From the IMG/VR virus record IMGVR_UViG_3300037422_000298: a DNA stretch of 64,000 bases; one strand, given 5' to 3'. Each line of letters opens with the position of its first letter. Position 1 is the stretch's first letter. The notes under the pieces are model-generated. The model saw only the letters and a list, made by a program, of their open reading frames with translations, had not been told where the DNA came from and searched no databases. Made by a program: the position numbers and the translations under genes. Shown piece after piece: positions 1,898 through 46,484 of this stretch. The stretch comes from a virus (taxonomy: Duplodnaviria; Caudoviricetes).

Positions 1898-1915
1898 CGA
1901 TCGCTCGCGCGATCG
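1898..1915 (-). promoter_or_regulatory. CGATCG-N6-CGATCG palindrome promoter (first of 14 loci)
   Basis: cgatcgctcgcgcgatcg; on the minus strand followed by TGG-TACGTT, 6 nt, GTG. Confidence 0.75.
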
Positions 1916-1921
1916 CCAGGT

Positions 1922-2209
1922 CTAGACGGCAGGCGCAAGAATGAGCACGGTGTCAGGGTCGTCGGAATTCGACATCGGCAGTCGGTACTTCGTGATGAGC
2001 CGCCTGGCCTCGTCGCGCAGTGCTATGTCGTCGATCACACGGTGCCACTTCGGGTTGACCCGCGAGCGCGATATCACGCAAAACGTCACGGGTTCGCCGA
2101 GACGCCATGCCATCGCGAGACCGTCGACCTCGGAGATCCGGAAGTACAGCTGCCGGATCTCCAGAGGGACGACTTGGTTGTGCCGACTCTCGCGGGTCGG
2201 GACGCTCAT
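1922..2209 (-). CDS. Hypothetical protein (MSVPTRESRH...)
   Basis: ATG overlaps the TAA of the 841-aa gene (TAATG coupling). Confidence 0.6.
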   Translation of the reverse strand: MSVPTRESRHNQVVPLEIRQLYFRISEVDGLAMAWRLGEPVTFCVISRSRVNPKWHRVIDDIALRDEARRLITKYRLPMSNSDDPDTVLILAPAV

Positions 2210-4734
2210 TACGAAGCGTCGCCGCCGGTCGGAACGAGCGCACCGCCGGACTCGACAGGATCCGGTTGGTCGGTGTCGACCTCGACTTCTTCGATCAGGA
2301 TACGCACGCATTCCTGACGGAAGTCCGAGGGCGCCTTTGGCAACATCACGTCGATGAAGTCCGCCCAACGTTCTTGTTGGAACAGCACGAACGCGGGGAT
2401 GACGAGCTGGTTCGACACGACATGCTCGACGCCTTGCAGGATCGCATCGATCACCTTGTCGGGTGTCAGCTTGCCTTCAGCGACGCCGCGCCGTAGGCGC
2501 TGCACGCTCTCCAGTGCGATGCCGAACATCTCTTCTTCGGTCGGGCCTGTGTTGTTCGGCGGCGGGGGCGGCTCGACGTACCCTTCGATCGGGCCGGTCT
2601 GTTTGGCTTGTGCTACCGGCTCGGCTGGATCGATCGGACCGGTGCGCTTCGGTTGTGTATTGCCCAGACCTGCAGCCGTGTGACCGTTCGATGGTTGTGC
2701 CGTTGGCTGCTGCGGGTGCGGCTGTGCTGCTGGCTGCTGCGGCTTCGTACTTGCGTTCGCATTCACGACCGGCGGCGGAGGTGCCCACTGACCGCCTTGC
2801 GCACGCGCCTGTGCTTGCGCTTGCGTGTACATCGCTTGCGATCGCAGCTGCGCGTCGGCTTGGATCTTCATCTGGTCGCGTTGCGCTTCGGCGGTCTTGA
2901 CCTTGGCCTCGCTGATCACCGAATCGCGCTTCACCGCGAGGAATCGCTCGGCGACTTCGCTCGCACGACCGATACCCTCTTGGATCAGGCGAACGGCAGG
3001 CGGTTCACCGCCGCCACCGCTCATCTCCATGACGGTCTGCGCGGCGTTCTTGTAGAGGTTGCCGATCTCGCCGACCGACTGGATCATGCTGCGCATCACG
3101 CCGTCGGAGCCTTGCGAGCTGTCCTTCATGATCGCCGCGAGCTGTGCCGGGGCGACCATGAACTGCGCCATGCGTTCGGTGGACTGTTGTTGCATGCGCG
3201 AGATCTCACGCATGTTGTCGGCGTTTGCGCGCGCGGTTTCCTTCATCATGTCGATCACGGGATCGCTCGCATTCCGCGCCGTCATGAGCTGCTCGAATCG
3301 GCGTTCGGTAGCAGCCTGCTGTTCACGCATCTCGCGCTGCAGGGTCTCTTCGCGCCGTTCGCGCTCGTAGCGCTCGCGCTCGCGCTCGCGCTCGTGACGC
3401 TCGTTTTCGATTCGGCGTGCGTCCTCCTGACGCTGACGTTCGAACTCGCGCGCCTGGCGATCTTGCTCCTCGCGGAGTCGCCGGTACTCGTCGGTCTCGC
3501 CGCGCGGCTGTTCGTTCATCCGTACGATCTGATCACGGAGTGCTTGAACTTGCGCGTCGCTTTGCGCGCGCATCTGTGCGAGCTGCTGTTCGGCGATTTG
3601 TCGTTGCAGCGCTGCTTGTTCTGCGGCGGCTTGCTCACGCAGTCGCTGCTGCTCGGCTTGCGCCGCTTCGCGCAGTCGCTGTTGCTCTTCGCGCATGCGA
3701 CGGACTTCTTCATCTTCGCCCTTGCCGCGGCTCTCGCCCATGCGGCGGATCTCTTCCTGCATCGCCTGGAGCTGTTGCGCGTGCTGCTGCTGAAGCTGCT
3801 GTAGTGCTTGCTGTTGCGACGCCTGGATCCGATCGAGCGTCGTCTTGTACTCCAGCTCCTTCTGGTTCAGCTCGGCTTGGCGCAGCTTCTGCTCCAGCTC
3901 ACGCTTCTCGGCTTCGCGCTTCTCGTTCTTCTCGTCGTCTTCGAAGAATCGCGCGTTGCGACGTCGATCGTACTCGTCTTCATACGGCCGCGAACGCGGG
4001 TAGCCGTAGCCCATGCCCTGACCGGGACCTCCGAACGGGCCGCCGAAGTTCGACTGCGGGTAGCCCCACGGACCTTGCGGCATGCCCCACGGACCTTGCG
4101 GTGCGCCCCACGGTCCCATCGGGTTCGCGCCCCACGCGCCTTGCGGGTTCCACATTGGTGGAGCTTGCGGCATTGGCGGCGCCTGTGTCATGAGCGGCGT
4201 CATCGCAGGTGCATTGGGTGCGACTGGCGCAGGCATCACAGGTCCGGTGTGTGGTGGGTTGTTGTAGCCGAGCGCCGTTCCAGTTGGAGGCCAGCCAGTC
4301 TGCTGTTGCAGCCCGAGCGGCTGTGCGCCTGGTGGGATGTTTTGCGGGCCAGCGATAGGCGGAGCTGCCGCGGGCACGTTGGCGCCATACATCGCGGCTT
4401 CGGCTGTGTTGGGTGGGATCTTCTCCGGGTACATCCGCGGGTCCCACACGCCTTGCCACGTCATGCGCTCGCCCTTCGCGTCGGTGACGGTGAACTCGTA
4501 ATAGCCGCCGCCCGACCACTTCGTGAGGATGAAGTTCTCCAGCTGCAGCACTTCATCGCGCGTCCAGCCAGTGCCAGGAGGTGAGAAGCCGGTCTGCTCG
4601 CTGCCCTTCGGCGGAAGCTCGATCGGTTGACGCACGTTGCCGCGCATCTTCTCGACACGCACAGTCAACGGCTCGTGCATGCTCTGCAGCTTGACTTGAT
4701 CGAAACGCTGCTCTTTCTCTTTCTGCGCGGCCAT
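2209..4734 (-). CDS. Large Pro/Gly-rich and Gln/Glu/Arg coiled-coil protein
   Basis: 841-aa ORF with GAGGAG RBS; (A/M)PQGPWG repeats; long heptad-like Q/E/R region; palindrome at 4754-4770 upstream. Confidence 0.85.
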   Translation of the reverse strand: MAAQKEKEQRFDQVKLQSMHEPLTVRVEKMRGNVRQPIELPPKGSEQTGFSPPGTGWTRDEVLQLENFILTKWSGGGYYEFTVTDAKGERMTWQGVWDPRMYPEKIPPNTAEAAMYGANVPAAAPPIAGPQNIPPGAQPLGLQQQTGWPPTGTALGYNNPPHTGPVMPAPVAPNAPAMTPLMTQAPPMPQAPPMWNPQGAWGANPMGPWGAPQGPWGMPQGPWGYPQSNFGGPFGGPGQGMGYGYPRSRPYEDEYDRRRNARFFEDDEKNEKREAEKRELEQKLRQAELNQKELEYKTTLDRIQASQQQALQQLQQQHAQQLQAMQEEIRRMGESRGKGEDEEVRRMREEQQRLREAAQAEQQRLREQAAAEQAALQRQIAEQQLAQMRAQSDAQVQALRDQIVRMNEQPRGETDEYRRLREEQDRQAREFERQRQEDARRIENERHERERERERYERERREETLQREMREQQAATERRFEQLMTARNASDPVIDMMKETARANADNMREISRMQQQSTERMAQFMVAPAQLAAIMKDSSQGSDGVMRSMIQSVGEIGNLYKNAAQTVMEMSGGGGEPPAVRLIQEGIGRASEVAERFLAVKRDSVISEAKVKTAEAQRDQMKIQADAQLRSQAMYTQAQAQARAQGGQWAPPPPVVNANASTKPQQPAAQPHPQQPTAQPSNGHTAAGLGNTQPKRTGPIDPAEPVAQAKQTGPIEGYVEPPPPPNNTGPTEEEMFGIALESVQRLRRGVAEGKLTPDKVIDAILQGVEHVVSNQLVIPAFVLFQQERWADFIDVMLPKAPSDFRQECVRILIEEVEVDTDQPDPVESGGALVPTGGDAS

Positions 4735-4900
4735 GGAGATCTCCTCGACGGGTCGATCGCTCGCGCGATCAACGTTCGATCGCGGATGCGACTGCTATGG
4801 GTGAGTCGAGGCCACTCTAAGGGTGCGATAGATCGTTGTCAACGCAGGTTCAGTCGCGTCTGCGATTGACGTCCCGAGTCGTAGTGTGTACGACGACGAG

Positions 4901-6618: not shown

Positions 6619-6979
6619 TCGGACGTACCGGCGCAAGCCCAAGCGCCGTCGTCCGATCGCTGGATTGCTCGAACCTGGTCAGGCGCTCATACTTACGATC
6701 GATCCGCCGTTGCGCGATCACGAACAGCCGGTCGCATTCACGCCAAACGCTGGTGACATCTTGCTACGTGACGCGACTCAAGATCGCGTGACTATCGTAA
6801 ACACGACCGATCGCATCGTCGCCTACTTGCTGACAGCCGCGCCCAAGCTACTCGTCAAGGCAGCAACAATTCCGTGGAAACGTGTCGTGACAGACCTACG
6901 GCAAGCAGTTCGTAACAGTGGCCTACTCGAACGTTTTGCGCAGCTGTTCAGCGGCGATCGCGCGATTCCGGGCAAGTAG
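6578..6979 (+). CDS. Hypothetical protein, basic N-terminus
   Basis: ATG at 6578 with GAGG RBS within ORF 6314..6979; start uncertain. Confidence 0.5.
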   Translation: MTTTKTTPAKRGTSRTYRRKPKRRRPIAGLLEPGQALILTIDPPLRDHEQPVAFTPNAGDILLRDATQDRVTIVNTTDRIVAYLLTAAPKLLVKAATIPWKRVVTDLRQAVRNSGLLERFAQLFSGDRAIPGK

Positions 6980-7023
6980 ATCGCGGCAGCGATCAACGAT
7001 CGCGGCAGCGATCGTGGTACGGT
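6979..7023 (+). promoter_or_regulatory. Tandem CGATCG-N6-CGATCG palindromes plus extended -10 for the lysis cassette
   Basis: gatcgcggcagcgatc-aa-cgatcgcggcagcgatcg-TGG-TACGGT, 6 nt, ATG 7030. Confidence 0.75.
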
Positions 7024-7029
7024 CTCGGC

Positions 7030-7323
7030 ATGGGTGCAATCGCAGATCTTTGGAAGAGCGAACGCGGACTGCTCGCGGTTCTGCTTGTCATCGGTGCAAC
7101 GGTCCTGACTGCGCTGAGTCAAATGACGATCCAGCAGTGGCAGGACTACACGCTGTGGATCTTCGGTTTGTACGCAGGTAGCAAGACGGTCACGGGTGCA
7201 GTTGCGCTGTTCAAGGGCGGCACAGCCGAGCCCGAAGCGGCTCCAGCTCCAACTCCGGCTCCGGCTTCAGTTCCAGCTCCGGCTCCAGACCCGACACCGA
7301 CTCCTGCAGAGCCGCCGAAGTGA
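7030..7323 (+). CDS. Putative holin
   Basis: Two TM helices, small size, upstream of endolysin. Confidence 0.6.
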   Translation: MGAIADLWKSERGLLAVLLVIGATVLTALSQMTIQQWQDYTLWIFGLYAGSKTVTGAVALFKGGTAEPEAAPAPTPAPASVPAPAPDPTPTPAEPPK

Positions 7324-7617: not shown

Positions 7618-8538
7618 GTGCCCACGATTCTCGGAATCGATTACGCGTCGATCGACAACAACGAACCGCCCAACTGGTCGCAGGCCAAGCTGCCATCGAG
7701 TGACGGCTCGATGTTGCAGTTCGTGATCATGCGCGCGACCTACGGCGACTGGATCGACACGGACTACCTTCGGGACTTTCCCGGGATCAAGACGGCCGGA
7801 CTTCTACGCGGCGCGTACATGTACCCGATCTACAAGAACAGCCAAGGCGTCTTGATGACGCCCGAGCTGCTCGTCGAGACGATGCTTCGCGCACTCGCAC
7901 AAGGCGGCTACCAGCGTGGCAAGGATATGCCGCCCGTGATCGACATCGAGTCGGGCGGCTCGCCGGTTGCGTTTGGTGTTTCTGCCGAAGACGCACTCAA
8001 GTGGTACGAGCGCATCTACGAGTTGCTCAAGGCCGAGTTCGGCGTCGCACCGATGATCTACACGAGCGGTCGTGTGTGGCGCGAGGATCTCAAGAACCTC
8101 ATGACCGAGATGACGGACAGCGCGCTGTGGCTCACGAAGCCGTGGCCGTGGGCGCTTCACACGACAGCGCAACGTTCGATCACGCAGGCGTTCTCGTCGG
8201 GCACGTACGATCCGGAAGTGCCGCTACCGTGGGGCGGCGGTAACTGGGTCGTGCAGCAGTACCAAGGCGACTCATGGGGTTGGCCGGGTATCGTTCGGCC
8301 GCCGAATCGCCCTGGTCAAGTCGACTGCAACCGCTTCCACACGATCAAGGAAGGCTATCGAGGACAGCTCGTACGTTGGTACCAACTACGACTCGGCGCT
8401 GGTCTCGTGCCTGACGGCATCTTCGGCCCCAAGACAAAGCAAGCCACGATCAACTTTCAGAAGGCACACGGACTCGTTCCCGACGGGATCATCGGCGTGA
8501 AGACGTTCGTGCCGCTGTCGTGGGTCGTACCCAACTAG
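7618..8538 (+). CDS. Endolysin: GH25 muramidase plus C-terminal PG_binding_1 domain
   Basis: GIDYAS, RGAYMY, PVIDIE (DxE), PMIYTS, QQY; C-terminal DGIFGPKTKQATINFQKAHGLVPDGIIG. Confidence 0.9.
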   Translation: MPTILGIDYASIDNNEPPNWSQAKLPSSDGSMLQFVIMRATYGDWIDTDYLRDFPGIKTAGLLRGAYMYPIYKNSQGVLMTPELLVETMLRALAQGGYQRGKDMPPVIDIESGGSPVAFGVSAEDALKWYERIYELLKAEFGVAPMIYTSGRVWREDLKNLMTEMTDSALWLTKPWPWALHTTAQRSITQAFSSGTYDPEVPLPWGGGNWVVQQYQGDSWGWPGIVRPPNRPGQVDCNRFHTIKEGYRGQLVRWYQLRLGAGLVPDGIFGPKTKQATINFQKAHGLVPDGIIGVKTFVPLSWVVPN

Positions 8539-9168: not shown

Positions 9169-9200
9169 CTCTTGACTTGTCACGAGTGCAACGCTAGAAC
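9169..9200 (+). promoter_or_regulatory. Sigma70-type promoter of CTCTTGACTTG class
   Basis: TTGACT(9172-9177)-17 nt-TAGAAC; same 11-mer at 14308 and 16305. Confidence 0.65.
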
Positions 9201-20331: not shown

Positions 20332-20688
20332 GTGACGAAGCGACGCAAACCTCGAACGGTCACCGGACGCGTGGCTCTACGCCTTCGGGAGGCTGTCATC
20401 GGACCGGCGACAGCACTCAACCGCATGCGTGACGACCTGGAGTACGTCTTCATGCTCGTCGTTGCACAAGCAACGCAGCAAGGACTTCAACCGATCGACT
20501 TCGACAACGACGACGGCATCGATGCGTTGAGCGCAATCTTCATGGCGGTCACCGATCGCGATCGCGAGTTGATTCACGTGACGCCAGAGTGGCGCCGGGT
20601 CGTGATTTCCGCGCGGGCGCCACGGCGCGCGTTCTCGCCGCAGTTACCTGCTCGGCGGGATCACATCGGCATGCGAAGAGCGTCTTGA
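20332..20688 (+). CDS. Hypothetical protein
   Basis: 118-aa ORF divergent from the HIT operon. Confidence 0.55.
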   Translation: MTKRRKPRTVTGRVALRLREAVIGPATALNRMRDDLEYVFMLVVAQATQQGLQPIDFDNDDGIDALSAIFMAVTDRDRELIHVTPEWRRVVISARAPRRAFSPQLPARRDHIGMRRAS

Positions 20689-20713: not shown

Positions 20714-20720
20714 ACGTCTC

Positions 20721-24665: not shown

Positions 24666-24668
24666 TCC

Positions 24669-26020: not shown

Positions 26021-26060
26021 TCAGGGCAAAATTCTTGCTGGTTTCTGGTAATCTACCGGC

Positions 26061-27052: not shown

Positions 27053-27698
27053 ACCCGTTCGCGGTGTCGGATCGCGGCCGATATTTGTGCAGCCCGCAGC
27101 TATTTTTGTGCAGTCGGGTTCGCGACTTCAATAACTGTGCAAAGCCACGTCGCGGTGACGCGTATCGTAGCGAGCACGGACCGCGTTACGAGAACGGCGA
27201 TCCAGGTGCCGGTTGCAACGCCACGCACGTCGCGCGTTCACGTCGTTCGTGGAAGCGCCTTGCGAATCGTTCCGAGCGTCGAACCGGTAGGACGCTCTCG
27301 AAGTTCAACGGCCAGCACCGGCAACGCCCCAATCAATGAAAGGTGATCATGTTCAAGTGCAAGATGTGCGGCAGCGATTCGGCGATAGGGGAGACGCTCG
27401 CGAGGGTCGTCGTCGCGACACGTCGGAAGGAGTACCCGAGCTTCCAGCGTGCAGATGGTACGCACGATCGCGGCGGCACTGGGATCGAGATCGCGCGCGA
27501 GACGTCTGGTCACGAGAGTTGCGTAAGGACGCTACAGGCCGAGCTTCTCGCAGCAGCGCCGCCGATGCTAGCGTTCGCGGACACGGTCATGTACACGACC
27601 GATGTTGCGTCCGGATCAGTACCGTTCAACGGCGTCGTCTAGCGCGATCGTGCGAGCGATCGGGGTTGTGATAGGCTCGGAAGCCAAGGAGAAAGACC

Positions 27699-28064
27699 AT
27701 GGCCGTTACTCTCACGCTCGTCTCGGCGACGCCACATTCACTCAAGTATCTTTGGACGCACGACGGCGTCGGTGGCGCGAGCATTCAGCGTACGCAGGCG
27801 CAGATTCTTGCGGACTTCGCGGGCATCCAAGGGCCGAGTCCTCTCAAGGATGCCCTCAGTACTACCAGCGATGCCGTTTGGGCTGCGCTCCAAGCTAGCT
27901 CACGGCTCTCGGTGTACACGACCATCACAGCTTTTGGTGTAGTCACTTGCATTCGTGGAGCGCTCGTACTGGATCCGGGTCGGGTGTTGGACGTCGACGG
28001 TGTCAACGGCGCTGCAGCTGCGGCACTCGTCGAGATTCGATTCCATCACACGATCGAACGGTAA
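27699..28064 (+). CDS. Putative virion protein, HTIE family paralog 1
   Basis: MAVTLTLVSATPHSLKY...VEIRFHHTIER; AGGAG RBS; palindrome 27645-27662. Confidence 0.8.
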   Translation: MAVTLTLVSATPHSLKYLWTHDGVGGASIQRTQAQILADFAGIQGPSPLKDALSTTSDAVWAALQASSRLSVYTTITAFGVVTCIRGALVLDPGRVLDVDGVNGAAAAALVEIRFHHTIER

Positions 28065-28074
28065 CGGTGTACCG

Positions 28075-28101
28075 CGATCGCTCGCGCGATCGTGCTAGAA
28101 T
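28075..28101 (+). promoter_or_regulatory. CGATCG-N6-CGATCG palindrome plus extended -10 TGC-TAGAAT
   Basis: cgatcgctcgcgcgatcg-tgc-tagaat. Confidence 0.8.
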
Positions 28102-28122
28102 CGACGGCCAAGGAGAAAGACC

Positions 28123-28500
28123 ATGGCCGCCACGCTGACGTTGATTTCTGCGACACCCTACGCGCTCAAGTACAAGTACGCCTACGACGGCATCGGCGCG
28201 CAGGGTATCGTTCGTACGCAGGCGCAGATCCTCGCCGATTTCGCGGGCGTCAAGGGCCCGAGTCCGCTCAAGGCGCTGCTTGCGGCAGCAACAGCCAATG
28301 CCGTGTGGCAGGCCCTTGACGAGGGTCCGAACCTGTCGATCTACACCAACGTTACGTTCACGGCGGCAGCGTCACAGGCCGTGCAATCGGACCTCGAAGT
28401 TGTCGTCCCGGACGGCAACGTTCTGAGCGCCAGTACGGCCGCCGGTTCGGCGCATCAGGCTGTGATCGAGCTGCGCTACCACCACACGATCGAGCGCTAA
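28123..28500 (+). CDS. Putative virion protein, HTIE family paralog 2
   Basis: MAATLTLISATPYALKY...IELRYHHTIER; same RBS text (gccaaggagaaagacc) as paralog 1. Confidence 0.8.
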   Translation: MAATLTLISATPYALKYKYAYDGIGAQGIVRTQAQILADFAGVKGPSPLKALLAAATANAVWQALDEGPNLSIYTNVTFTAAASQAVQSDLEVVVPDGNVLSASTAAGSAHQAVIELRYHHTIER

Positions 28501-30620: not shown

Positions 30621-30730
30621 CAAGCTACTCTCGACTTAGGCGGGGTTCGATTCCCCCGTGGGACACCGTCTACGTGCACATGCGCGACCCACCCGATCGC
30701 TCGCGCGATCGGATATGATCAGCGCCTGCG

Positions 30731-31435
30731 ATGGCGACGATCCTGAAGAACATCTTACGGTTCACAGGGCTCGTCGTTGGCGTACCCGTCGCGTTGCCGC
30801 ATCGGCTCAACGTCAACGACGTTCCCGTTCTTCCTCGGCTGGTGATCCCCAACGAGGGTGGTCATACCGTCACGGCCGACACGTTGAATGTGACGGTCAC
30901 CCGAACGGCACTAGGCACGGCCACCGTCGACGTTTACATCGAGTTTTGGCACACGATCGAGGCAGTTGTTCCGCTGGTTCCGCCGCCGGGTAAGCTAGTC
31001 GGTCTCGTTCCGTTCATCCTCGAACCGGGCGCAAGCATATTACCGGTGGACGCTGCCGCAGTCGTCGCGTTCGGCAACAACTCGGTTGCTGCCGCAGCCG
31101 ACACGCGATTCTTGGATCAGTGGCGTAGCACGACGACTGCAGGCACCGCCGAGACAACTCCGATCGTTGCGCCTCGCGCAGGGACCTTGCGAAATCTGTT
31201 CGTCCGACATCAAGCAGCCGTTGGAAACGGCAACTCGATTACCTATCGCGTTCGCATCAACGGCGTGAACACAACGATCACCGTAACGCTGGCAACAGGT
31301 GCGATTGCACAGACGTCGGACTTGGTCAACACGGCTGCCGTCGCGCAAGGTGATCGGATCACGCTCAGCGCGACGAAGGCGCTCGCTCTTGGAAACGGTG
31401 CAGTGATTCCATCTGCGACCCTGGAGTTCGTCTAA
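30731..31435 (+). CDS. Putative virion spike/adaptor: HTIE-family N-domain plus beta-sandwich
   Basis: N-domain homologous to 45822..46451 (LKN..F.GL.VGVPV.L.H.LNVN..WHTIE); palindrome 30694-30711 plus TATGAT. Confidence 0.75.
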   Translation: MATILKNILRFTGLVVGVPVALPHRLNVNDVPVLPRLVIPNEGGHTVTADTLNVTVTRTALGTATVDVYIEFWHTIEAVVPLVPPPGKLVGLVPFILEPGASILPVDAAAVVAFGNNSVAAAADTRFLDQWRSTTTAGTAETTPIVAPRAGTLRNLFVRHQAAVGNGNSITYRVRINGVNTTITVTLATGAIAQTSDLVNTAAVAQGDRITLSATKALALGNGAVIPSATLEFV

Positions 31436-32079: not shown

Positions 32080-32540
32080 CGCTGGTACGTGTGCTTGAAC
32101 GTCAGCTCGATGTAGCACGCGAGGTTCACGATGTTCGGCCCGGTGATGAGGATGGCAGGTCGACCTGCTGATGCCGGATCGACACTGGCGCCGTCGACGG
32201 CGAGTGCTGACCAGTACACACCGCCTGCTGCAACGGCGCTGTTCCGCGGTACGACCTTGATCTCACCGCGTGCTGTTGAAAGGCTCGCGATGCTCGTTAG
32301 CCCATCGCCACTGAAAACGCGTTGAGCTGCTGCGTCACTGGCGACGGGCGTATTCACGAGCTGTGCGATCGGCTGACCCTTGACGGCATCAGCGGCACGG
32401 GCGAGATCGGTGTTTTCCGTGCCGCCCGTCGGTTTGTTGGTGAGGGCTGTTTGCGCAAGACCGCCGCCCACGCCGTCGGAAACAGCGAGCCAACGAAGAC
32501 GGTGAGGCGTGCGTTCGACGAGTGTGAGTGCGATTGCCAT
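32076..32540 (-). CDS. Putative virion protein, HTIE family paralog 3
   Basis: MAIALTLVERTPHRLRW...YIELTFKHTYQR; ATG is 6 nt after TATCAT. Confidence 0.75.
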   Translation of the reverse strand: MAIALTLVERTPHRLRWLAVSDGVGGGLAQTALTNKPTGGTENTDLARAADAVKGQPIAQLVNTPVASDAAAQRVFSGDGLTSIASLSTARGEIKVVPRNSAVAAGGVYWSALAVDGASVDPASAGRPAILITGPNIVNLACYIELTFKHTYQR

Positions 32541-32546
32541 GCCAGG

Positions 32547-32581
32547 ATGATACCTGATCGCTCGCGCGATCGTGGTACCGT
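32547..32581. promoter_or_regulatory. Bidirectional palindrome promoter
   Basis: One gatcgctcgcgcgatcg flanked by TATCAT (minus) and TGG-TACCGT (plus). Confidence 0.75.
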
Positions 32582-35049: not shown

Positions 35050-35736
35050 TCAACGTTCATGATCGTCGGGCTCGGGTTCTTCAGCAGGTCGATCGATCGC
35101 AGCGGAACCGCGGCGCAGCTGACGACGAACGGGCGCCGTCACGATCGATCCGCCGTCGTCGAACGGCATGGGAGCGCCGGTTGTCATCGGCAATGCAGAA
35201 GACGGAGCAACCGGCGTGCTCGCACTCGCGCGCTTCCACGCAGCCATCTCGACATCACTGAGGCCCTGTCCCTGTCGGAGCTTGTCGACGAACGGTGCGT
35301 CGACCACCTGTGCAGCCTGGGCACGTTCGGCGATCGCGTTGACGGCCGCACTCTGGTCACCTCCCGCGCGCGCGATGAAGAACGCGTCGTAGGCACGCGC
35401 AGCCTCCTCGGGCGTGTCGTACACGCCGATCCGTTCCTGGTGCCCTTCGCGTGAGACCACCGCCGCCCAGCGCTTGCCGTAAGGATGGACCCCCCGATAG
35501 CCACTCCGAGTCGCGTGTAATGATTTCGGCGTTTTATGTGTGCTGCTCACGAGCGGCAAAACCTGCTTCGCCGAGCGACGTGGAAAGGCATGAACGCTCT
35601 GCGCGTTTGCGTACAGCTCGATGATAAGCCCGCGAATATGTTCGGGCGTAGGCGTGAACCGTTTGTCGGCACCGTCTTGAAGCCATTTCAGGACCGGTGT
35701 CGGCAGGGAGATCGTGATCCGCTCGTTCTTACTCAT
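35050..35736 (-). CDS. RHH-like plus AP2/ERF-domain DNA-binding protein
   Basis: RITISLP..LKWL N-terminus; SGYRGV..KRWAA..IGVYDTPEEAARAYD (AP2 consensus). Confidence 0.8.
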   Translation of the reverse strand: MSKNERITISLPTPVLKWLQDGADKRFTPTPEHIRGLIIELYANAQSVHAFPRRSAKQVLPLVSSTHKTPKSLHATRSGYRGVHPYGKRWAAVVSREGHQERIGVYDTPEEAARAYDAFFIARAGGDQSAAVNAIAERAQAAQVVDAPFVDKLRQGQGLSDVEMAAWKRASASTPVAPSSALPMTTGAPMPFDDGGSIVTAPVRRQLRRGSAAIDRPAEEPEPDDHER

Positions 35737-35923
35737 GCAGAATTGCTAGCTTTCATGTTTCGTACATGAGTTATTCATGCGAGTCAACGAAAGTGCGGTT
35801 TTGCAGCTCTAGAGCTGCAAATCGACCACGACATAAAACGTTGATCTCCCGTCGCCGAGATCGCTCCAAACGAGCTTCATTGGTCAAACCAATTGATTTT
35901 TCGTCTAAGCCCTTGAAATATGA

Positions 35924-36053
35924 CAGTTGCTGTGGTTGCATTGAGTAGTCTCTACTTTCTGATCTAGAGGAAAAAAATAAATGAAATAAATGGAGTTGAT
36001 ATAAATAGGAGATCAGGGGATTAGACCCCTTCCCAACGCAACCACAGCAACTG
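35924..36053. repeat. Perfect 16-bp inverted repeat around an AT-rich core (candidate replication origin)
   Basis: CAGTTGCTGTGGTTGC (35924-35939) / GCAACCACAGCAACTG (36038-36053). Confidence 0.65.
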
Positions 36054-36155
36054 GTTTGGTTAGGTCAACGACACTCTGCATACGCAGTCACGCGAATTGA
36101 TTACGATCACGCGCGACTGTTCGTACCGGGCCCGAGCTGCTGTAACTTGCGTCAG

Positions 36156-37768: not shown

Positions 37769-38341
37769 CTAACGCTTCTTCTGCTTCTTTTTGGTCTTCG
37801 TCGTCGGCGAAGAACCGGGCGCCTCCGGCGGCGGCGTCGCTTCGACTTCGTCGAACGAAATCGAAATCTCCTCGTCGAGCGTCGGGCTGGAGTCGCGCGA
37901 CGCCACGACGAGATCGGTCAGCTGCTCCTTGGGCATCACTGCTGTCGGCTCCGGTGCCGTGATCGGTGCAGGTGTTGGTGGCGGCGGCAACGGCGCAGGC
38001 GGCGTAGGCGGTTCCGGCGGCGCGGGAGGGGGCGGCAGCGGTTCCGGCGGTGCGGGAGGGGGCGGCAGCGGCGCCGGAGGAGGGAGCGGCTTCGCGACAG
38101 CTGCAGGTTTCGCGGACGGTGCTGCCGGAGCCATTTGCGCGACCGCGGCAGCCAGATCCTCGACGGAGAGTTTGAAGTAGCGCGCGACCTGCTCCAGCGC
38201 CTCGTCTGGGACGAGATCCGGATCGATGGTCAGGTTCCACATCTGACCGAGACGCCGTAACGTGACCGGCGAACCGGCGAACGTCCTCTTGCGGCTCTCG
38301 ACGTACGCAGCGAGGGCTTGGGTCTTCACGGAGTGCGCCAT
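37769..38341 (-). CDS. Proline-rich protein
   Basis: PLPPPPAPPE repeats; ATG 38341 is 6 nt after TACCGT beside palindrome 38358-38375. Confidence 0.7.
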   Translation of the reverse strand: MAHSVKTQALAAYVESRKRTFAGSPVTLRRLGQMWNLTIDPDLVPDEALEQVARYFKLSVEDLAAAVAQMAPAAPSAKPAAVAKPLPPPAPLPPPPAPPEPLPPPPAPPEPPTPPAPLPPPPTPAPITAPEPTAVMPKEQLTDLVVASRDSSPTLDEEISISFDEVEATPPPEAPGSSPTTKTKKKQKKR

Positions 38342-38377
38342 ACCCCAACGGTACACCCGATCGCTCGCGCGATCGAG

Positions 38378-39040
38378 TTACCGCGAACGGCGGTCATACC
38401 GCGAGATCACGAACACGGCGACACCAGCCAGCGCGAGACCGCCGATGACCGCTCCCACGATCTTGGCGCGATTTGAAATGCCGACGGGCTCTACCGACGT
38501 CACCTCCAACTGGATCTGTACCGCTTGCAGATTCTTGAGCGCGTCCTGTGCAGCCGCTGCCGTCGGACGTATCGACGGCGGCCCCAGTTGATCGATCAAG
38601 GCCTTGAGCAGCAACAAGGCGCGCTGTCGAACCTCTGGCTGCGTCGTCCTCGAAAAATTGTCGACGATGCCTTGAATCGCCTGACCGTAGAACCCGGCGG
38701 TTCCTGTATCAGGGATCTGGCCGCCGCGTACCGCAGCGTCAACCGACGCCGTCAGCGTACTGACTGCCAGATCAGGATTCGTCCTGGCGTGCTCGCGAAG
38801 CGCGAGCACCAGACCGGTAGGGATCTCTGCTAGCGGCGAAAACGGTGCGGGTAGCAACGCGTCGACAACCACACGCAGTGTCCGCTCGTTCGGTGGCGTC
38901 ACGAATAGCAGCGCATCGACGAGCTTCTTCGTGTCGTTGATGGTGGTGCCGCACTTCGGCGGAAACTGCGGGATCGCGTTCTTACCGAATTCACGCGTCT
39001 GCGTCAGGCACGCTACAAAGTTATCGACCGCGTCCGCCAC
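38378..39040 (-). CDS. C-terminally anchored membrane protein, HAxxNPD family paralog 1
   Basis: LREHARTNPDLA..GFY; C-terminal TM plus RRSR; GTG is 6 nt after TACTTT beside palindrome 39057-39074. Confidence 0.75.
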   Translation of the reverse strand: MADAVDNFVACLTQTREFGKNAIPQFPPKCGTTINDTKKLVDALLFVTPPNERTLRVVVDALLPAPFSPLAEIPTGLVLALREHARTNPDLAVSTLTASVDAAVRGGQIPDTGTAGFYGQAIQGIVDNFSRTTQPEVRQRALLLLKALIDQLGPPSIRPTAAAAQDALKNLQAVQIQLEVTSVEPVGISNRAKIVGAVIGGLALAGVAVFVISRYDRRSR

Positions 39041-39091
39041 GTTGATAAAGTACACCCGATCGCGTCCGCGATCGACGTGCCTTCGTGACAG

Positions 39092-39862
39092 CTATCGGGA
39101 TCGCCGTACTCGGCCTTGTCGGATTTGGTCTTCTACTCGGCGCCGCAAGGGCCCTGCGCTGAGCGCGTATGCGCGCCGCGGCGTCCTTCGTGCGAAGTAC
39201 CAAATCAACAACGCACTACTACTGACGAGCGCGACACCCGTCAACGCAAGCACGACGGTTCGAGCGCGCGACATACGCGCTTCGGGCGATCCCGGTGCGG
39301 GCGTCGGCTCTGGGATCGGCGTCGGCGTCGGCGTCGGCGTGGGCGTCGGTGTCGGCGTTGACTCTGCAAGTTTGGGAAGTGCTTCTCGCGCGATCTTTGC
39401 GGTGTCCGGCAGTGTCCCCGACAGATCTGCGAGCGACTTGACGAACAGTCGTGCCTTCGTCTTGATGTCCGCGCCGACAGCCTTTGGAAAGTTCTCGACG
39501 ACGCCTGCGATCGGCTCGGCGAAAAACCCGTCGATGACGAAGCCCGTCGTATCACGGAGGTACAGCTCCATGATGTTCAAGAGGTGCTGGATCGCGACGT
39601 CAGGATTCGCCGCTGCATGGCGCCGCAACGCGCCGATGAATGAACTTGGGTAGAACTGATTCTGCGCACCGCGCGGCCCCGACGGTCCTTGCAGAATCCC
39701 TTCAGCCATGAGGTTCAATGCGCGAAGGTTCGGTGGAGTGATCTGCTCGACCGCTTCCGGGGTAATGCCCGCACAACCGGTGATGCCTGATCCAGAAAAG
39801 CCGATTTTCACGCACTCTTCGAGTGCGTTCAGTGTATCGGTCGTGGCGTCACCGAAACGCAT
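39092..39862 (-). CDS. C-terminally anchored membrane protein, HAxxNPD family paralog 2
   Basis: LRRHAAANPDVA..GFF; (TP)n linker; TM; Arg-rich tail. Confidence 0.75.
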   Translation of the reverse strand: MRFGDATTDTLNALEECVKIGFSGSGITGCAGITPEAVEQITPPNLRALNLMAEGILQGPSGPRGAQNQFYPSSFIGALRRHAAANPDVAIQHLLNIMELYLRDTTGFVIDGFFAEPIAGVVENFPKAVGADIKTKARLFVKSLADLSGTLPDTAKIAREALPKLAESTPTPTPTPTPTPTPIPEPTPAPGSPEARMSRARTVVLALTGVALVSSSALLIWYFARRTPRRAYALSAGPLRRRVEDQIRQGRVRRSR

Positions 39863-39865
39863 CGT

Positions 39866-40810
39866 TCAGAAGCTGGACTTGGAACGCGCTGTCGCCTTCG
39901 GCAACGACGACCGCGACTGCTTGTAGCGATAGAGCATGTAGCCGCCGACGCCAACCGCAGCGACCGTCGCGACGATCCCGATGATCCCGAAGAATCCGAG
40001 TCCAGCGCCCGGTTTTGATGGATCGATGGCAGTGCCCGCGACGCCCTTGAGCACGGCGACTGCCGCAGCGTTCGCTTCCGCAGTGCACTTTGAATGCACC
40101 GCAGGATCTGTCGAAGTGCCGACACACTTGGCGACCAGCGTAGTCAGCGCCTCGAACGCCTTCAAGTTGATCGCGGCGAGCGCCTGCTGGCGTTCGGCGT
40201 CGGCGCGCGCGACTTCAACCTTGCCGCGCTCCTTGGTCACGGCGACCGTCACGAGAACGACCGTGGCGGCCGTGAGCGCCAGACCGATCAGGAAGGCTAC
40301 GACCGGCGCGAGTCCGAGCCCCGACGGCGCGCTCCACATCCAGTCGTTGATGTCGCCATCGTGGAGTGCGCCTTCGAGCGTGCCGACCTTCTCGTGACCC
40401 ACGGGACCGTACTTCACGGTGATCTGCGACAGTCGAACCGGCTGCGTCGGTGTCGTCAAGACGGCGCCCCAACCACCCCAACCGGTCGTCGGCGTCGCCA
40501 CGCCGATTTCTGGCGGGAACACCGGCACGGCGTTCGCGTCGAAGCGATCTGCGGCAGGCGTTTCTTCGTAGGCTTTCTTCCACACTTCAGCAGCTGCCAC
40601 GAAGCCGTTACGGGCATCCGTGTAGCTCTGAATCAGCTCCGGCGCGATCGTTTGGTTCGGCGCGATTGCACTGAGCTGCGCGAGCTTGCTGAATGCGAGC
40701 TTGAGCTTGGCTTCTGCATCAGCGAGAACGTCAGCCAGGGCCGCTGTTTGCGGGTCGAGAGGGGTAGGCGTGGTCTGACCAAGGCCGTACGCGAGCTGGG
40801 AGACGAACAT
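39866..40810 (-). CDS. Two-TM putative virion membrane protein
   Basis: N-terminal YGLGQ, internal and C-terminal TM, basic tail; leaderless palindrome promoter 40817-40844. Confidence 0.75.
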   Translation of the reverse strand: MFVSQLAYGLGQTTPTPLDPQTAALADVLADAEAKLKLAFSKLAQLSAIAPNQTIAPELIQSYTDARNGFVAAAEVWKKAYEETPAADRFDANAVPVFPPEIGVATPTTGWGGWGAVLTTPTQPVRLSQITVKYGPVGHEKVGTLEGALHDGDINDWMWSAPSGLGLAPVVAFLIGLALTAATVVLVTVAVTKERGKVEVARADAERQQALAAINLKAFEALTTLVAKCVGTSTDPAVHSKCTAEANAAAVAVLKGVAGTAIDPSKPGAGLGFFGIIGIVATVAAVGVGGYMLYRYKQSRSSLPKATARSKSSF

Positions 40811-40847
40811 GCCGCCAAACTATCATGGATCGCTCGCGCGATCGAGG

Positions 40848-41576
40848 TCAGCGCCGACGTCGACGAGCCAACGCGGGCGCCGCACGGGGCGCGGATAGCC
40901 CCGCAGCGAGCAGTCCAATCGCGGCAGTTCCCACGACGAGTCCGAGCCCGACCGCGACCGCGAACGTCTTTTGTCGTTTCGTTTGATCATCAGTCGTCGC
41001 AGACACGAACGGCGTGGTCGTATCGGGTGTCGGTTGTTGTGGCGCCGCGATCGGCTCGCCGAGGTCCGTCAGAATTTTCGCCGCGCGTTGTGCGGGATCT
41101 GTCAAGTCGGTCGCCGCGGCAACGCGCTGAAGTGCCGCCACGATGCGTGCGCGCAGATCCGCTGACGGTGGCGGCGTAACACGTATCGCGACACGCGCAT
41201 CGAGACCGTCGACGGCGTGCGACAAGAAACCGTCCGGGCCTGCGTTCGCCCGTGCGAGCGTGCCTTCGTTCAGTAGCAGATCGATGCCTTGCAGAAGCAG
41301 CTCGGCCGCGAGGTCGGGGTCTGCGTCGGCGTGAATGCGAATGACATCCGGGGCGAACGACGTCTCCAAGAATGGATTCGGCCCGGCAGGACCGCGCGCG
41401 AACGCTTGGCCGATCAACTCCAGCACGCGGCGGTCTGCCGTCAACGTCGACGGCGTCAGGTCGACCATGACTTTCGAGAACGTTGGACGGCATGCGATGG
41501 GATCCGCTACGCACGCCGTGAGCGCCGTAACGACCGTGTTGACGTCGAAAGCCTGGCCGAATTGCGCGAAGATCAC
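40848..41576 (-). CDS. C-terminally anchored membrane protein, HAxxNPD family paralog 3
   Basis: IRIHADADPDLA..GFL; TM plus RRRRR; palindrome promoter 41583-41608. Confidence 0.75.
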   Translation of the reverse strand: MIFAQFGQAFDVNTVVTALTACVADPIACRPTFSKVMVDLTPSTLTADRRVLELIGQAFARGPAGPNPFLETSFAPDVIRIHADADPDLAAELLLQGIDLLLNEGTLARANAGPDGFLSHAVDGLDARVAIRVTPPPSADLRARIVAALQRVAAATDLTDPAQRAAKILTDLGEPIAAPQQPTPDTTTPFVSATTDDQTKRQKTFAVAVGLGLVVGTAAIGLLAAGLSAPRAAPALARRRRR

Positions 41577-41646
41577 GTCGCAATCCTACACGATCGCGCG
41601 AGCGATCGGCTTCTATCACGCCTCCGGCGATGGCATACTGCCCGGT

Positions 41647-41988
41647 ATGGCTCGACGCCGCAAAGCCGATGTGAAGAAGACCTTGCTATGTGCGACGCGG
41701 TTCTGGTCGATCGGTTGGCGCGAACACGACAACCGAACCGCGACCTCGTCGAGCGGTGTACGGCATGTCGTGCGGAAGCAGGGCTTCACGACTGGTGAGA
41801 TCAATCGCGCCGAGCGTGAACTGATCCGCGAGGGCAAGCTCGAAGTCAGCGGCAAGAAACACGGCAAGACGCTGCGCTTGACGGATGCGGGCAACCGTGT
41901 GAGTTGTTCGAGCGTTCGACTCGCGCCGTGGACAGACGATCAGTATCCTGGTGCGGCGTTGACATCCCGTCGACGCAAACGGCGTTAA
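41647..41988 (+). CDS. Basic winged-helix-like protein
   Basis: MARRRK..LIREGKLEV..LRLTDAG..RRRKRR. Confidence 0.55.
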   Translation: MARRRKADVKKTLLCATRFWSIGWREHDNRTATSSSGVRHVVRKQGFTTGEINRAERELIREGKLEVSGKKHGKTLRLTDAGNRVSCSSVRLAPWTDDQYPGAALTSRRRKRR

Positions 41989-42023
41989 CACGATCGCTCG
42001 CGCGATCGTGGTATCGTCGAGCC

Positions 42024-42419
42024 ATGAAGCGCTTGTTCCTGTTCGTCGCCTTCGCGATCGGCCTCGGCACCACCAACGCGAGCTGTCCCGGACCCGGACC
42101 TGGACCAGTTCCCGTCGTCGTCAACGCGATCGTCGACTGCACGCTACAGAACCAGTCGCAGATCACGGCGTTGATCGGCGAGTTCAAGACGCTCCTCGTC
42201 GGACAGCTTCCCGACTGGAAGGCGATCTACCAACGCGCCAAGAACGCGGGCAAGGCAATCGGCGGCTGCGCGCTCGCCGAGCTGGTGCAGGACTACCTCG
42301 GCAACAAGAGCGCACCACCACCGCAAGCCGACAGTTGGAACGCGTTCCAGGCGCTCGAACGGTTCCGCCGTGAAGAGGCAGGCAACGCGACGTTCAAGAC
42401 GGCGAAGGGCGACTTGTGA
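42024..42419 (+). CDS. Putative lipoprotein
   Basis: MKR, hydrophobic core, NASC lipobox-like; ATG is 6 nt after TGG-TATCGT beside palindrome 41991-42008. Confidence 0.65.
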   Translation: MKRLFLFVAFAIGLGTTNASCPGPGPGPVPVVVNAIVDCTLQNQSQITALIGEFKTLLVGQLPDWKAIYQRAKNAGKAIGGCALAELVQDYLGNKSAPPPQADSWNAFQALERFRREEAGNATFKTAKGDL

Positions 42420-45259: not shown

Positions 45260-45260
45260 C

Positions 45261-45803
45261 ATGCGTGAATGGTGGCTATGGCGTACCAAACCGGCGCCGA
45301 AAGGTGTCGCGAAAGTCGTCGAGACGTTCAATCTGCCGATGGCTTATCAGCATGGTGCGTACCGCTTCGAGAACAGCCTTGTCGAGGTCGTGTTACCGGC
45401 AATCCACAGCGATGATCGAAGCGACGTGTACACCCATCGACCGGTCGGCGGCATGTTGACGATCGACATCTATCAGCAGCCTCGCGTGCTCCATCGACGC
45501 CGTCGCAACGTCTCCAGTCGAAGGTTTCTACTGACGCCGTCGTTGTACATCTTCGTCGACCTGCGCGAGTTCTACCCGGACTTCAGACTACAACACGGCC
45601 ATCCGCTACTTTGGATCCAACCGGAGATCTTCAACCTGACGGGTGAGATCTACCAAGGTAACGCAGTGGATAAGCTACTGCCGATCAGCTTCCAAGAGCT
45701 GCAAGACTTCGCGCAGACAAACGAAGCTGGCGGTTTCATCTTGGCGGCGTTGGACTCTTTCATGCAGTCCGGCCAACGCGTCGACGCGCGATTCCGACCT
45801 TGA
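45261..45803 (+). CDS. Hypothetical protein
   Basis: 180-aa ORF ending the operon. Confidence 0.55.
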   Translation: MREWWLWRTKPAPKGVAKVVETFNLPMAYQHGAYRFENSLVEVVLPAIHSDDRSDVYTHRPVGGMLTIDIYQQPRVLHRRRRNVSSRRFLLTPSLYIFVDLREFYPDFRLQHGHPLLWIQPEIFNLTGEIYQGNAVDKLLPISFQELQDFAQTNEAGGFILAALDSFMQSGQRVDARFRP

Positions 45804-45821
45804 GCTACTCGACCCGCTTGG

Positions 45822-46451
45822 TTAGGGGTAACTGGCGATCGCGCTCCAGTCGCTGACGCCGTCCGAGACGAGAAAGTTGACCGCATAGGAGGTGTCTGAG
45901 ACGTTGATGACGAGATCGGTCCCGCCGTTCAAGGTGTCGCCGCCTCCTGGGGTGACTAGATAGCCGAACGATCCGCCGCCGATCTTCGCGATGTAGACGC
46001 CGACCCAGCCGCCGTTCGGGACGGAGTTGGCGGGAGGTAGCGTCACGGTGGGTTGTGTAAACGGGACGTCTTGGACCTGATTGATCATGAAGGCCGTCGC
46101 CGTGAAGTCGCCGAGGATGTTCGCAGTCCGCGGAAACAGGACGGCTCCACCACCGCCACCGCTCGCGATCACGAACGGTACGAGCCCGACGAGGTTACTG
46201 GGCGGCGTGACGCTTTCGATCGTGTGCCAGTGCTCGACGTAGACGTTGACGGCACCGCTCGCTGCGTCCGCAGTGCGTGTCGCCGTCACGTTCACGGCAT
46301 CGGCCGTGACCGTGAAGCCTGATGCGTTTGCAGCCACGAGCTGCGGGATCACTGGTTGACCGTTGACGTTCAGACCGTGTGCCAGGCTTACCGGAACGCC
46401 GACGGCAAGCCCGGCAAACGCGACAACATTCTTGAGTGTGGTGCGCGGCAT
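45822..46451 (-). CDS. Putative virion spike/adaptor: HTIE-family N-domain plus fibre-like beta domain
   Basis: WHTIES; C-terminal TVTLPPANSV..GDTLNG..LVSDGVSDW; palindrome 46467-46484 plus TAGAAT. Confidence 0.75.
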   Translation of the reverse strand: MPRTTLKNVVAFAGLAVGVPVSLAHGLNVNGQPVIPQLVAANASGFTVTADAVNVTATRTADAASGAVNVYVEHWHTIESVTPPSNLVGLVPFVIASGGGGGAVLFPRTANILGDFTATAFMINQVQDVPFTQPTVTLPPANSVPNGGWVGVYIAKIGGGSFGYLVTPGGGDTLNGGTDLVINVSDTSYAVNFLVSDGVSDWSAIASYP

Positions 46452-46484
46452 ATATACATTCTACGTCGATCGCAGCAGCGATCG

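Follow-up and report, generated by a model that had tools for sequence, protein, structure and literature searches.

An 18-bp palindrome at extended -10, largely leaderless promoters of an uncultured tailed virus: a putative operator of lysis and particle-related genes

Small helix-turn-helix domains of the LuxR type (GerE, NarL, LiaR and TraR-type) act as dimers on palindromes of 16-20 base pairs (bp), and the sign of regulation by GerE depends on the position of its site. In promoters of the MerR type, a 7-4-7 dyad lies between good -35 and -10 boxes that are held apart by an overlong spacer of 19-20 bp. Here we analyze an 18-bp palindrome that recurs at gene boundaries in a stretch of 64,000 nucleotides (nt) from the viral record IMGVR_UViG_3300037422_000298 (Caudoviricetes; one strand), hereafter called the window, and we compare it with these and three further systems. 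The stoperators of cluster A mycobacteriophages, bound by an L5/Bxb1-type repressor, are asymmetric sites of 13-14 bp that are read by a monomer and oriented with transcription; they overlap an early promoter and are also found inside transcription units, where the bound repressor blocks polymerase (PMC9283540, PMC6550527). The PafBC element is asymmetric, lies at a fixed -23 to -28 and is read by a WYL-domain heterodimer (PMC8635444). Thermus phage P23-45 has a middle/late class of extended -10 promoters, for which gp39 binds polymerase as a switch with no DNA operator; extended -10 promoters have no -35 and are independent of sigma domain 4 (PMC3950348).

Two CGATCG hexamers separated by 6 nt, the form in which the palindrome had been described preliminarily, occur 10 times without mismatch in the window, compared with 0.13 expected from dinucleotide-preserving shuffles (largest shuffle value, 2). 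Four further copies carry one mismatch and one carries two. All 15 are intergenic by codon-model gene calls, in agreement with the earlier statement that the element always lies at gene boundaries, and the loci first listed are real, with 6979, 17741, 32556 and 40828 each one base off. The lone hexamer is present in 139 copies, a ratio of 1.01 to the prediction of a maximal-order Markov model. Because single CGATCG is not over-represented, the signal is the hexamer pair at its fixed spacing. The palindrome is almost certainly bound by one regulatory protein, which would control the particle and lysis genes jointly; sequence alone does not tell activation from repression.

No cultured relative of the window was found by megablast of 9 kilobases (kb) against 50,697 GenBank phage records, and tblastn gave a sole protein-level match, to one vWA protein (57% amino-acid identity) of Virus Rctr197k, which comes from an enrichment culture that oxidises methane. 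Relatives were found by scanning IMG/VR with the commonest 18-mer and were then taken whole. The five contigs (G001-G005, 36-221 kb) share 65-84% nucleotide identity with the window wherever they align and together contain 55 exact copies of the palindrome. Two of them, G001 and G002, are near-complete genomes with 17-21 exact copies each:

G001, 196 kb: 21 exact copies
G002, 221 kb: 17 exact copies
G003, 91 kb: 8 exact copies
G005, 65 kb: 8 exact copies
G004, 36 kb: 1 exact copy

Rctr197k contains one exact copy, which is the chance level. Conserved in the five related contigs and at chance level in Rctr197k, the palindrome is specific to this lineage of viruses, in line with the virus-specific element that had been proposed. 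Across the window and the five relatives, 51 of the 65 exact copies and 72 of the 150 one-mismatch copies (one of these only at a gene edge) are intergenic. The codon model calls about 84% of this DNA coding (77% for the window), and the motif is thus not equally frequent inside coding sequences. Looser matches at 14101, 28783, 34479 and 34491 sit inside coding DNA and look like chance.

The intergenic family sites show that the true unit is longer than was noted earlier. Positions 7 and 12, which had not been used in the site search, are C and G in 111 of the 123 sites; positions 2-7 and 12-17 are 93-100% invariant, and the outer C and G are kept in 77%. The core is therefore GATCGC-N4-GCGATC and the full 18 bp are c-GATCGC-N4-GCGATC-g. 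The 4 nt at the centre are variable, with GCGA/TCGC at 35% of sites, and where the centre is asymmetric its orientation is independent of gene direction (6 versus 4 in the window). Tandem or overlapping sites occur at 6978/6997, at 4754, which adjoins a half-site, and at 128880/128899 of G002. The window sites and the genes next to them are as follows (aa, amino acids; 'leaderless' is predicted from the spacing):

1882..1915, minus strand: exact palindrome 1898-1915, TGG, -10 box TACGTT (1894-1889), 6 nt, GTG 1882; leaderless; 127-aa membrane protein 1499-1882
4734..4842, minus strand: TTGACA (4842-4837)-N17-TAGAGT (4819-4814), a complete promoter of a second geometry, then a degenerate half-palindrome
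4754-4771, minus strand: palindrome with one mismatch, about 36-53 nt into the leader, then GAGGAG as ribosome-binding site and the start codon, ATG 4734, of an 841-aa coiled-coil protein
6978..7032, plus strand: tandem palindromes 6978-6995 (two mismatches) and 6997-7014 (exact), TGG, -10 box TACGGT (7018-7023), 6 nt, ATG 7030; leaderless; a holin-like 97-aa membrane protein heading a cassette with a GH25 + PG_binding lysin (7618-8538)
17740..17757, plus strand: palindrome with one mismatch, overlapping the stop codon of 17419-17742, then TGTTTTGTGTT; no TAnnnT
27645..27701, plus strand: exact palindrome, 9 nt, extended -10 TGATAGGCT, 21-nt leader with AAGGAG as ribosome-binding site, ATG 27699 of a paralogue of gene 28123
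28075..28125, plus strand: exact palindrome, TGC, -10 box TAGAAT (28096-28101), 21-nt leader with AAGGAG as ribosome-binding site, ATG 28123
30694..30733, plus strand: exact palindrome, GA, -10 box TATGAT (30714-30719), 11 nt, ATG 30731; a gene of the all-beta family named MGTILKN here
32540..32572, minus strand: palindrome 32555-32572 with one mismatch, GG, -10 box TATCAT (32552-32547), 6 nt, ATG 32540; leaderless
38341..38375, minus strand: exact palindrome 38358-38375, GGTG, -10 box TACCGT, 6 nt, ATG 38341; leaderless
39040..39074, minus strand: exact palindrome 39057-39074, GGTG, -10 box TACTTT, 6 nt, GTG 39040; leaderless
40810..40844, minus strand: palindrome 40827-40844 with one mismatch, A, extended -10 TGATAGTTT, 6 nt, ATG 40810; leaderless; protein with an ML..G-type N-terminus
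41576..41608, minus strand: exact palindrome 41591-41608, TG, -10 box TAGGAT, 6 nt, GTG 41576; leaderless; left end of a 447-nt divergent region
41991..42026, plus strand: exact palindrome 41991-42008, extended -10 TGGTATCGT, 6 nt, ATG 42024; leaderless; lipoprotein-like gene
46451..46484, minus strand: exact palindrome 46467-46484, ACG, -10 box TAGAAT, 6 nt, ATG 46451; leaderless; a gene of the MGTILKN family

The preliminary description placed a TAnnnT hexamer usually 2-4 nt after the palindrome. This arrangement is seen at 11 window sites (1898, 6997, 28075, 30694, 32555, 38358, 39057, 40827, 41591, 41991 and 46467); at 27645 the distance is 9 nt, and no gene-side TAnnnT is found in the oriented flanks of 4754 and 17740. 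In four relatives, the site orthologous to 17740 is followed after 4 nt by a -10 box and then by a leader of about 60 nt and a homologue of 17816-18151. Within the whole family, 77 of the 123 sites have a TAnnnT -10 box within 12 nt. By their consensus these boxes appear to be of the primary-sigma type, consistent with the suggestion that a host sigma reads them. No -35 hexamer is recognisable 16-19 bp upstream, again as first described: the palindrome fills that position, and the 4 nt flanking it show no TTGACA-like consensus. To examine the geometry we used a linked leaderless set of 58 promoters, defined by a palindrome, TAnnnT, 5-7 nt and ATG/GTG with an open reading frame of at least 50 codons downstream. 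The pattern TGnTAnnnT, an extended -10 with TG at -15/-14, is present in 41 of the 58 (71%), compared with 11.5% of all intergenic TAnnnT; in the window the TG is found at 1898, 6997, 27645, 28075, 40827 and 41991. This extended -10 character is an addition to the preliminary description.

The start codon follows the -10 box by 6 nt in all nine window cases for which this had been reported (1882, 7030, 32540, 38341, 39040, 40810, 41576, 42024 and 46451; all ATG or GTG), and no ribosome-binding site intervenes. In a separate tally of palindrome-linked promoters, the gap is 6 nt in 37 of 55 and 7 nt in 8 of 55. Because 6-7 nt is the usual distance from a -10 box to the transcript start, these genes are very probably leaderless; the gene at 30731, with 11 nt between -10 box and ATG, would have a very short leader. 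The rule moves some predicted starts, such as that downstream of the 32555 site (from 32741 to 32540), and the corrected starts are in accord with the N-termini of orthologous proteins (at 42024, for instance, MKRLFLF versus MKRIILF and MKLIVAL).

An 18-bp palindrome could also act at the level of RNA, by terminating, processing or stabilising the transcript upstream or downstream of it. The sequence can fold into a 7-bp stem with a 4-nt loop, the copy at 17740 is followed by TGTTTTGTGTT after overlapping a stop codon, and in tandem gene rows the palindrome lies 2 nt past the stop of the upstream gene, as at 38358. Its distribution, however, is the reverse of that of terminators: of the 122 sites for which both neighbouring genes were called, 52 separate divergent genes and 5 separate convergent ones, compared with 77 divergent (8%) and 76 convergent pairs among all 1016 adjacent gene pairs. 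A T-rich tail is found at just 6 of the 123 sites, and the combination that marks intrinsic terminators, a G+C-rich hairpin with a T-run at gene 3' ends, is not what is seen here. Furthermore, the arms are conserved in sequence and do not covary, and the palindrome is mostly upstream of the inferred transcript start, hence outside the target mRNA. We therefore consider a function as an RNA hairpin exceedingly improbable. The enrichment between divergent genes and the lack of T-tails indicate a promoter element rather than a terminator, and the conservation of the arms, their free orientation and the location mostly upstream of the transcript start argue for recognition of double-stranded DNA by a symmetric dimer.

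The distance between palindrome and -10 box is variable. It is 0 nt in one promoter, 2 nt in 6, 3 nt in 16, 4 nt in 8, 5 nt in 3, 6 nt in 1, 7 nt in 2, 8 nt in 4, 9 nt in 2, 11 nt in 3, 12 nt in 1 and 14-29 nt in a few. The mode of 3-4 nt accounts for 24 of the 58, and at 3 nt the palindrome abuts TGn and spans about -16 to -33. Orthologous promoters also differ: upstream of the lipoprotein gene the spacing is 3 nt in the window (41991), G003 and G004 and 8 nt in G001 and G002, with TGnTAnnnT kept in all, and members of the MGTILKN family have spacings of 2, 2, 3, 7, 7, 8, 11 and 12 nt. The overall design resembles the PafBC hybrid promoters of mycobacteria, which share the TAnnnT -10 box, the missing -35, an element at about -16 to -33 and leaderless-style spacing. 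The palindrome differs from the PafBC element in its variable distance (0 to at least 12 nt, not constant even between orthologues) and in the mostly extended -10. An 18-bp 7-4-7 dyad ending 2-4 bp before the -10 box is likewise reminiscent of MerR promoters, but no -35 lies upstream of the palindrome and the spacing is not fixed, so the MerR arrangement is not reproduced.

A second geometry is limited to three gene families. In G001, G002 and G003 the palindrome lies 9-10 nt past the -10 box of TTGACA-N18-TAGCTT or TTGACA-N18-TAGTTT promoters, at about +3 to +20, and these promoters precede two paralogous 'ML..' genes. Ahead of the 841-aa gene of the window (4754), and likewise in three relatives (150092 of G001, 30140 of G003 and 37022 of G002), it lies about 40 nt past TTGACA-N17-TAGAGT, at about +36, and adjoins a degenerate second site. 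At about +3 to +20 or about +36 of such complete promoters, a bound protein could only hinder RNA polymerase.

A further promoter class has neither palindrome nor TG and has a strong -35, CTCTTGACTTG-N17-TAGnGT. It precedes the vWA, Ubl-like and ThiF genes, and its members by position are these:

9291: vWA gene, promoter upstream
14362: gene, promoter upstream
16346: ThiF gene, promoter upstream
20685: RNA cluster, promoter upstream

The pattern CTCTTGAC(T/A)-N17/18-TAG(C/G)GT is found at 9169-9200, 14308-14345, 16305-16340 and 20685-20715; the class is present in all relatives, and 100% of the pattern matches are intergenic. The co-occurrence of the two classes indicates that the host polymerase reads both -35/-10 and extended -10 promoters. 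Phage P23-45 has the same pair of classes, both read by the host holoenzyme, and the virus studied here would add a DNA operator to them.

To identify a protein that might bind the palindrome, we scanned with Pfam 127 of the 128 small proteins (60-330 aa) common to G001 and G002; one protein, which spans two stretches, was left out. Among the 25 listed of the 48 matched families, the sole sequence-specific regulator is a GerE/LuxR-type protein, encoded at 99352-99756 in G001 and at 148310-148723 in G002 (65.9 and 58.5 bits; Pfam cut-off 23.5). It has 134-137 aa, with a Cys/His-rich N-terminal half and a C-terminal four-helix helix-turn-helix domain of the NarL/GerE type. The C-terminal domain is modelled with a predicted local distance difference test score (pLDDT) above 90 and matches the DNA-binding domains of LiaR, NarL, DegU and GerE in Foldseek with a target-normalised template-modelling score of 0.8-0.9; the matched regulators include PDB 1je8, 4wu4 and 1fse, and some of the matched domains were solved on DNA. 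The model thus suggests that the viral protein shares the fold of the GerE, NarL and LiaR regulators. In contrast to these and to the TraR-type proteins, its N-terminal part is Cys/His-rich in place of a receiver or autoinducer domain. C26, H39, C40, H42, C50, C51, C53, H66 and H71 are invariant there, and this part, which models poorly, may be a metal or redox sensor.

The 38 homologues (P0002-P0039, query record included; 57-100% identity) come only from metagenome or sequencing-run assemblies. Motif and protein occur together in G001 and G002, and Rctr197k has neither the protein nor the motif above chance; in G001 a palindrome lies directly upstream of the GerE-type gene. From this co-occurrence, the GerE-type protein is the likeliest candidate for the binder of the palindrome. 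Loci of 12-20 kb around distant homologues (33% identity) contain no recurrent palindrome. In G001, the GerE-type gene is followed 1.4 kb downstream by a gene (101187-102089) for a tyrosine recombinase with a SAM-like N-terminal domain, which could function in integration or in the resolution of dimers.

Other DNA-binding proteins were considered. No Sigma70_r2 domain was found in any relative, so no viral sigma factor was seen, and the HTH_3 proteins are not conserved among the relatives. The window proteins with MarR-like and XRE-like domains were rejected, their genes being inside a 5-kb insertion that is missing from G002. The AP2 protein 35050-35736 lies outside the insertion and was set aside solely because no link between AP2 and the motif was found. 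A 113-aa winged-helix-like protein encoded between the palindromes at 41591 and 41991 was rejected since it has a homologue only in G003 and none in the near-complete G001 and G002. Its reading frame (41647-41988, plus strand), which is uncalled, encodes a basic protein with a C-terminal RRRKRR tail and a winged-helix-like segment (weak RQC match, E = 0.029); the G003 homologue is 73% identical and has a leaderless start off the other face of the shared palindrome.

A second candidate is an HNH_3-like protein, present in G001, G002, G003 and G005 and absent from the window, whose gene diverges from a protamine-like gene across a double palindrome. The control region between them is conserved at 22745-22860 of G001, 86346-86460 of G003 and 25721-25835 of G005: the palindrome is followed by TCTTGACG and then by a degenerate second palindrome (CGATCGCTCATGGGATCG), and the divergent flanks are the 236-aa HNH_3-like gene and a row of small poly-Arg proteins ('GKRRRRR'). 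Several HNH-type proteins are encoded by these genomes, and together with the tyrosine recombinase near the GerE-type gene of G001 they raise the alternative that the palindrome has no role in transcription and lies in intergenic DNA by coincidence, as a target of a site-specific nickase, an HNH endonuclease or a recombinase, or of a protein that organises or packages the genome. Such a site would leave unexplained the link to TGnTAnnnT (77 of the 123 sites with a -10 box within 12 nt), the bias to gene 5' ends and the restriction to a single functional class of genes, and we regard it as highly improbable.

In the model that we favour, the 18-bp palindrome would be the operator for a virus-encoded, two-fold symmetric helix-turn-helix dimer. 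The regulon, about 15 promoters in the window and about 40-60 per genome in the relatives, would drive genes for lysis, membrane proteins, lipoproteins and other probable particle components and would exclude the replication and nucleotide-metabolism arm. RNA polymerase with the primary sigma of the host would read these promoters, most of which are of the extended -10 type without a -35, and transcription would begin on the start codon itself, with its A or G, 6-7 nt past the -10 box, so that the mRNAs would be leaderless. The operator would always lie within or just behind the polymerase footprint, mostly abutting TGn and sometimes 5-12 nt further upstream, and the bound protein, putatively the conserved GerE-type protein, would occlude promoters that are competent on their own and keep the regulon off. 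Relief might, as a speculation, come from inactivation of the repressor or from its titration by the 40-60 operators of each replicated genome. Such an occluding repressor, to which we give about an even chance, is favoured over an activator because extended -10 promoters need none, because the spacing shifts by single bases and, between orthologues, by 5 nt or half a helical turn, because sites at +3 and +36 only hinder polymerase, and because tandem sites are typical of repressors.

The preliminary description had proposed a dimeric viral activator. In this alternative, which extends to a dual regulator, the palindrome would replace the -35, a viral dimer would recruit the host sigma or adapt it, and the copies at +3 and +36 would be repression sites. 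Phage late genes are usually under positive control, and there are analogues in T4 MotA/AsiA, which acts at -30, and in GerE, an activator at some promoters and a repressor at others. The missing -35, the spacing mode and the late-looking regulon (a lysis cassette, membrane and particle-like proteins and no member in the replication arm) would all be expected of an activator, and the family of the candidate binder is rich in activators; the G002 gene for this protein, which lies in an operon and has no palindrome in the approximately 200 nt before its start, would fit an activator that is expressed earlier. Furthermore, the modal site at -16 to -33 covers the zone of the PafBC element (-23 to -28; PMC8635444). 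An activator is nevertheless unnecessary at the 71% of promoters with an extended -10 (PMC3950348), and 17 more extended -10 leaderless starts occur without any palindrome. Spacings of 0 to at least 12 nt, with a 5-nt difference between orthologues, are hard to fit to a fixed contact between protein and polymerase, and no activation is possible from palindromes that lie at +3 to +20 of full promoters. The extended -10, the variable spacing and the palindromes downstream of complete promoters make the activator first proposed doubtful, and we consider an activator or dual regulator possible, if less probable than the repressor.

Several points weigh against the favoured model. In lytic phages a repressor of late genes is rarer than an activator. 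The spacing mode could be a functional register rather than mere compaction, and the second geometry may be a special case, confined as it is to its three gene families. The GerE-type gene lies outside the window and has so far been found only in relatives; in G002 it is part of an operon, and the approximately 200 nt upstream of its start contain no palindrome. The -10 boxes are assigned to a host primary sigma from their consensus, and genes were called with a home-made model of codon log-odds, for which the window and its relatives served as training set. Finally, activators that replace the -35 at about -26 do exist, as PafBC illustrates (PMC8635444), so activation is not excluded by position alone.

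Of the described systems, the palindrome would appear to work most like the operators and stoperators of cluster A phages, while standing outside that family. Both are short, phage-specific sites present in tens of copies in short intergenic gaps (51 of 65 exact copies here), overlapping promoters and also placed inside transcription units. Unlike the asymmetric, oriented stoperators, the site studied here is a symmetric 18-bp palindrome with free orientation, and its regulon is late-looking rather than the whole lytic genome.

Methylation offers another way to control the same sites. Since relatives encode a D12 (Dam-like) methylase with GATC as candidate target, methylation of the two GATC cores, as suggested in the preliminary description, is possible. 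In its strongest form this alternative holds that the GATC pair, 12 bp apart, is modified by a viral Dam-like enzyme and that the promoter itself, or a SeqA-like or host-encoded reader of GATC pairs in their hemi- or unmethylated state, couples expression to replication. GATC is invariant in both arms; D12-class adenine methylase genes are found by Pfam in G001 and G002, and G003 and G005 carry genes that resemble them in sequence and share their N-terminal motif; and GATC is abundant throughout these genomes, which do not avoid it. Yet conservation reaches beyond GATC to c-GATCGC and the fixed N4, which indicates a sequence-specific reader rather than methylation alone, and with a GATC every 91 bp (701 in the 64-kb window) pairs of GATC alone cannot signal. 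A pure methylation switch thus seems quite improbable; as a modulator of binding, methylation could plausibly coexist with a repressor or an activator. We also entertain a combined scheme, an unlikely one, in which the palindrome would be a true -35 substitute at which a viral Zn/Cys-rich LuxR-type protein adapts the host primary sigma to late promoters of the leaderless kind, gated by viral Dam methylation.

The lysis part of the claim that the targets are lysis and structural-looking genes is borne out by the holin-like gene 7030 at the head of the lysin cassette. The other targets in the window include the lipoprotein-like gene 42024, the 841-aa coiled-coil gene starting at 4734 and a number of paralogues:

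38378-39040, 40848-41576 and 39092-39862: C-terminally anchored paralogues
30731-31435 and 45822-46451: MGTILKN all-beta family
27699-28064, 28123-28500 and 32076-32540: three-member paralogous family

Collagen-like and protamine-like proteins are further targets in the relatives. The label 'structural' remains unconfirmed, because no family or fold match was obtained among the scanned targets: Pfam with the 14 motif-adjacent genes and PHROGs with the first 10 gave zero family matches, and the MGTILKN family, for which the AlphaFold model is poor (pLDDT 50), had no Foldseek match. Three features make a late or particle-related regulon probable: its lysis cassette, the signals for membrane location and secretion, and the lack of targets in the replication arm. 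The palindrome-driven genes of the window form three paralogous families in which every member has its own promoter cassette apart from 39092-39862, which lies in the same operon, after 39866, and has no palindrome of its own; this suggests that gene and promoter were duplicated together.

The window (61% G+C, 9 tRNA genes) is a portion of a large viral genome. Its right arm, 47-64 kb on the minus strand, carries replication and nucleotide-metabolism genes and zero palindromes; it encodes PrimPol, ThyX, a SLOG/DprA-like protein and, judged by sequence, a dUTPase (60409-60861). The rest of the window encodes a dCTP deaminase, ThiF, a radical-SAM protein and glycosyltransferases besides the lysin. 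The arm also contains a 380-aa open reading frame (49857-50999, minus strand) in the only low-G+C stretch (0.55), without a Pfam match and uncalled by the codon model, which is possibly foreign. At 35737-36155 an A+T-rich intergenic stretch of 419 nt contains runs such as GGAAAAAAATAAATGAAATAAATGG; it could serve as an origin or control region or could be left over from foreign DNA. Approximately 22980-28070 is an insertion relative to G002, in which the flanks are only about 320 nt apart. It contains a DDE transposase (23397-23990), the XRE-like helix-turn-helix protein (23098-23400) and a coiled-coil protein with the MarR-like winged helix (24848-25201), and its right edge bears the extra palindrome 27645 with the paralogue 27699-28064 of gene 28123. 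When the 18-mer was searched for in 185,579 species genomes, single hits (at least 120) turned up in high-GC taxa that are unrelated to one another, and none of these hits was multi-copy or virus-related; they are chance and give no host clue.

Together, these observations provide a sequence handle on the expression programme of a clade of uncultured bacterial viruses that are very large (contigs of 36-221 kb) and the proteins of which are mostly orphans. The motif delimits a regulon of dozens of genes and corrects gene starts, because open reading frame finders mis-call leaderless genes; it also separates a probable late set of particle and lysis genes from the replication arm. The kind of host is narrowed to one with a polymerase that uses TTGACA/TAnnnT and extended -10 promoters and with frequent leaderless mRNAs, and a concrete candidate pair of protein and DNA is named, for which tests in vitro would need no culture of the virus. 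If the palindrome were a -35 substitute, sigma adaptation gated by methylation would couple late expression to genome replication, a kind of switch that is undescribed for any virus. Whether through a repressor titrated by replication or through a methylation-gated activator, the timing of the late genes in these viruses would be unusual.

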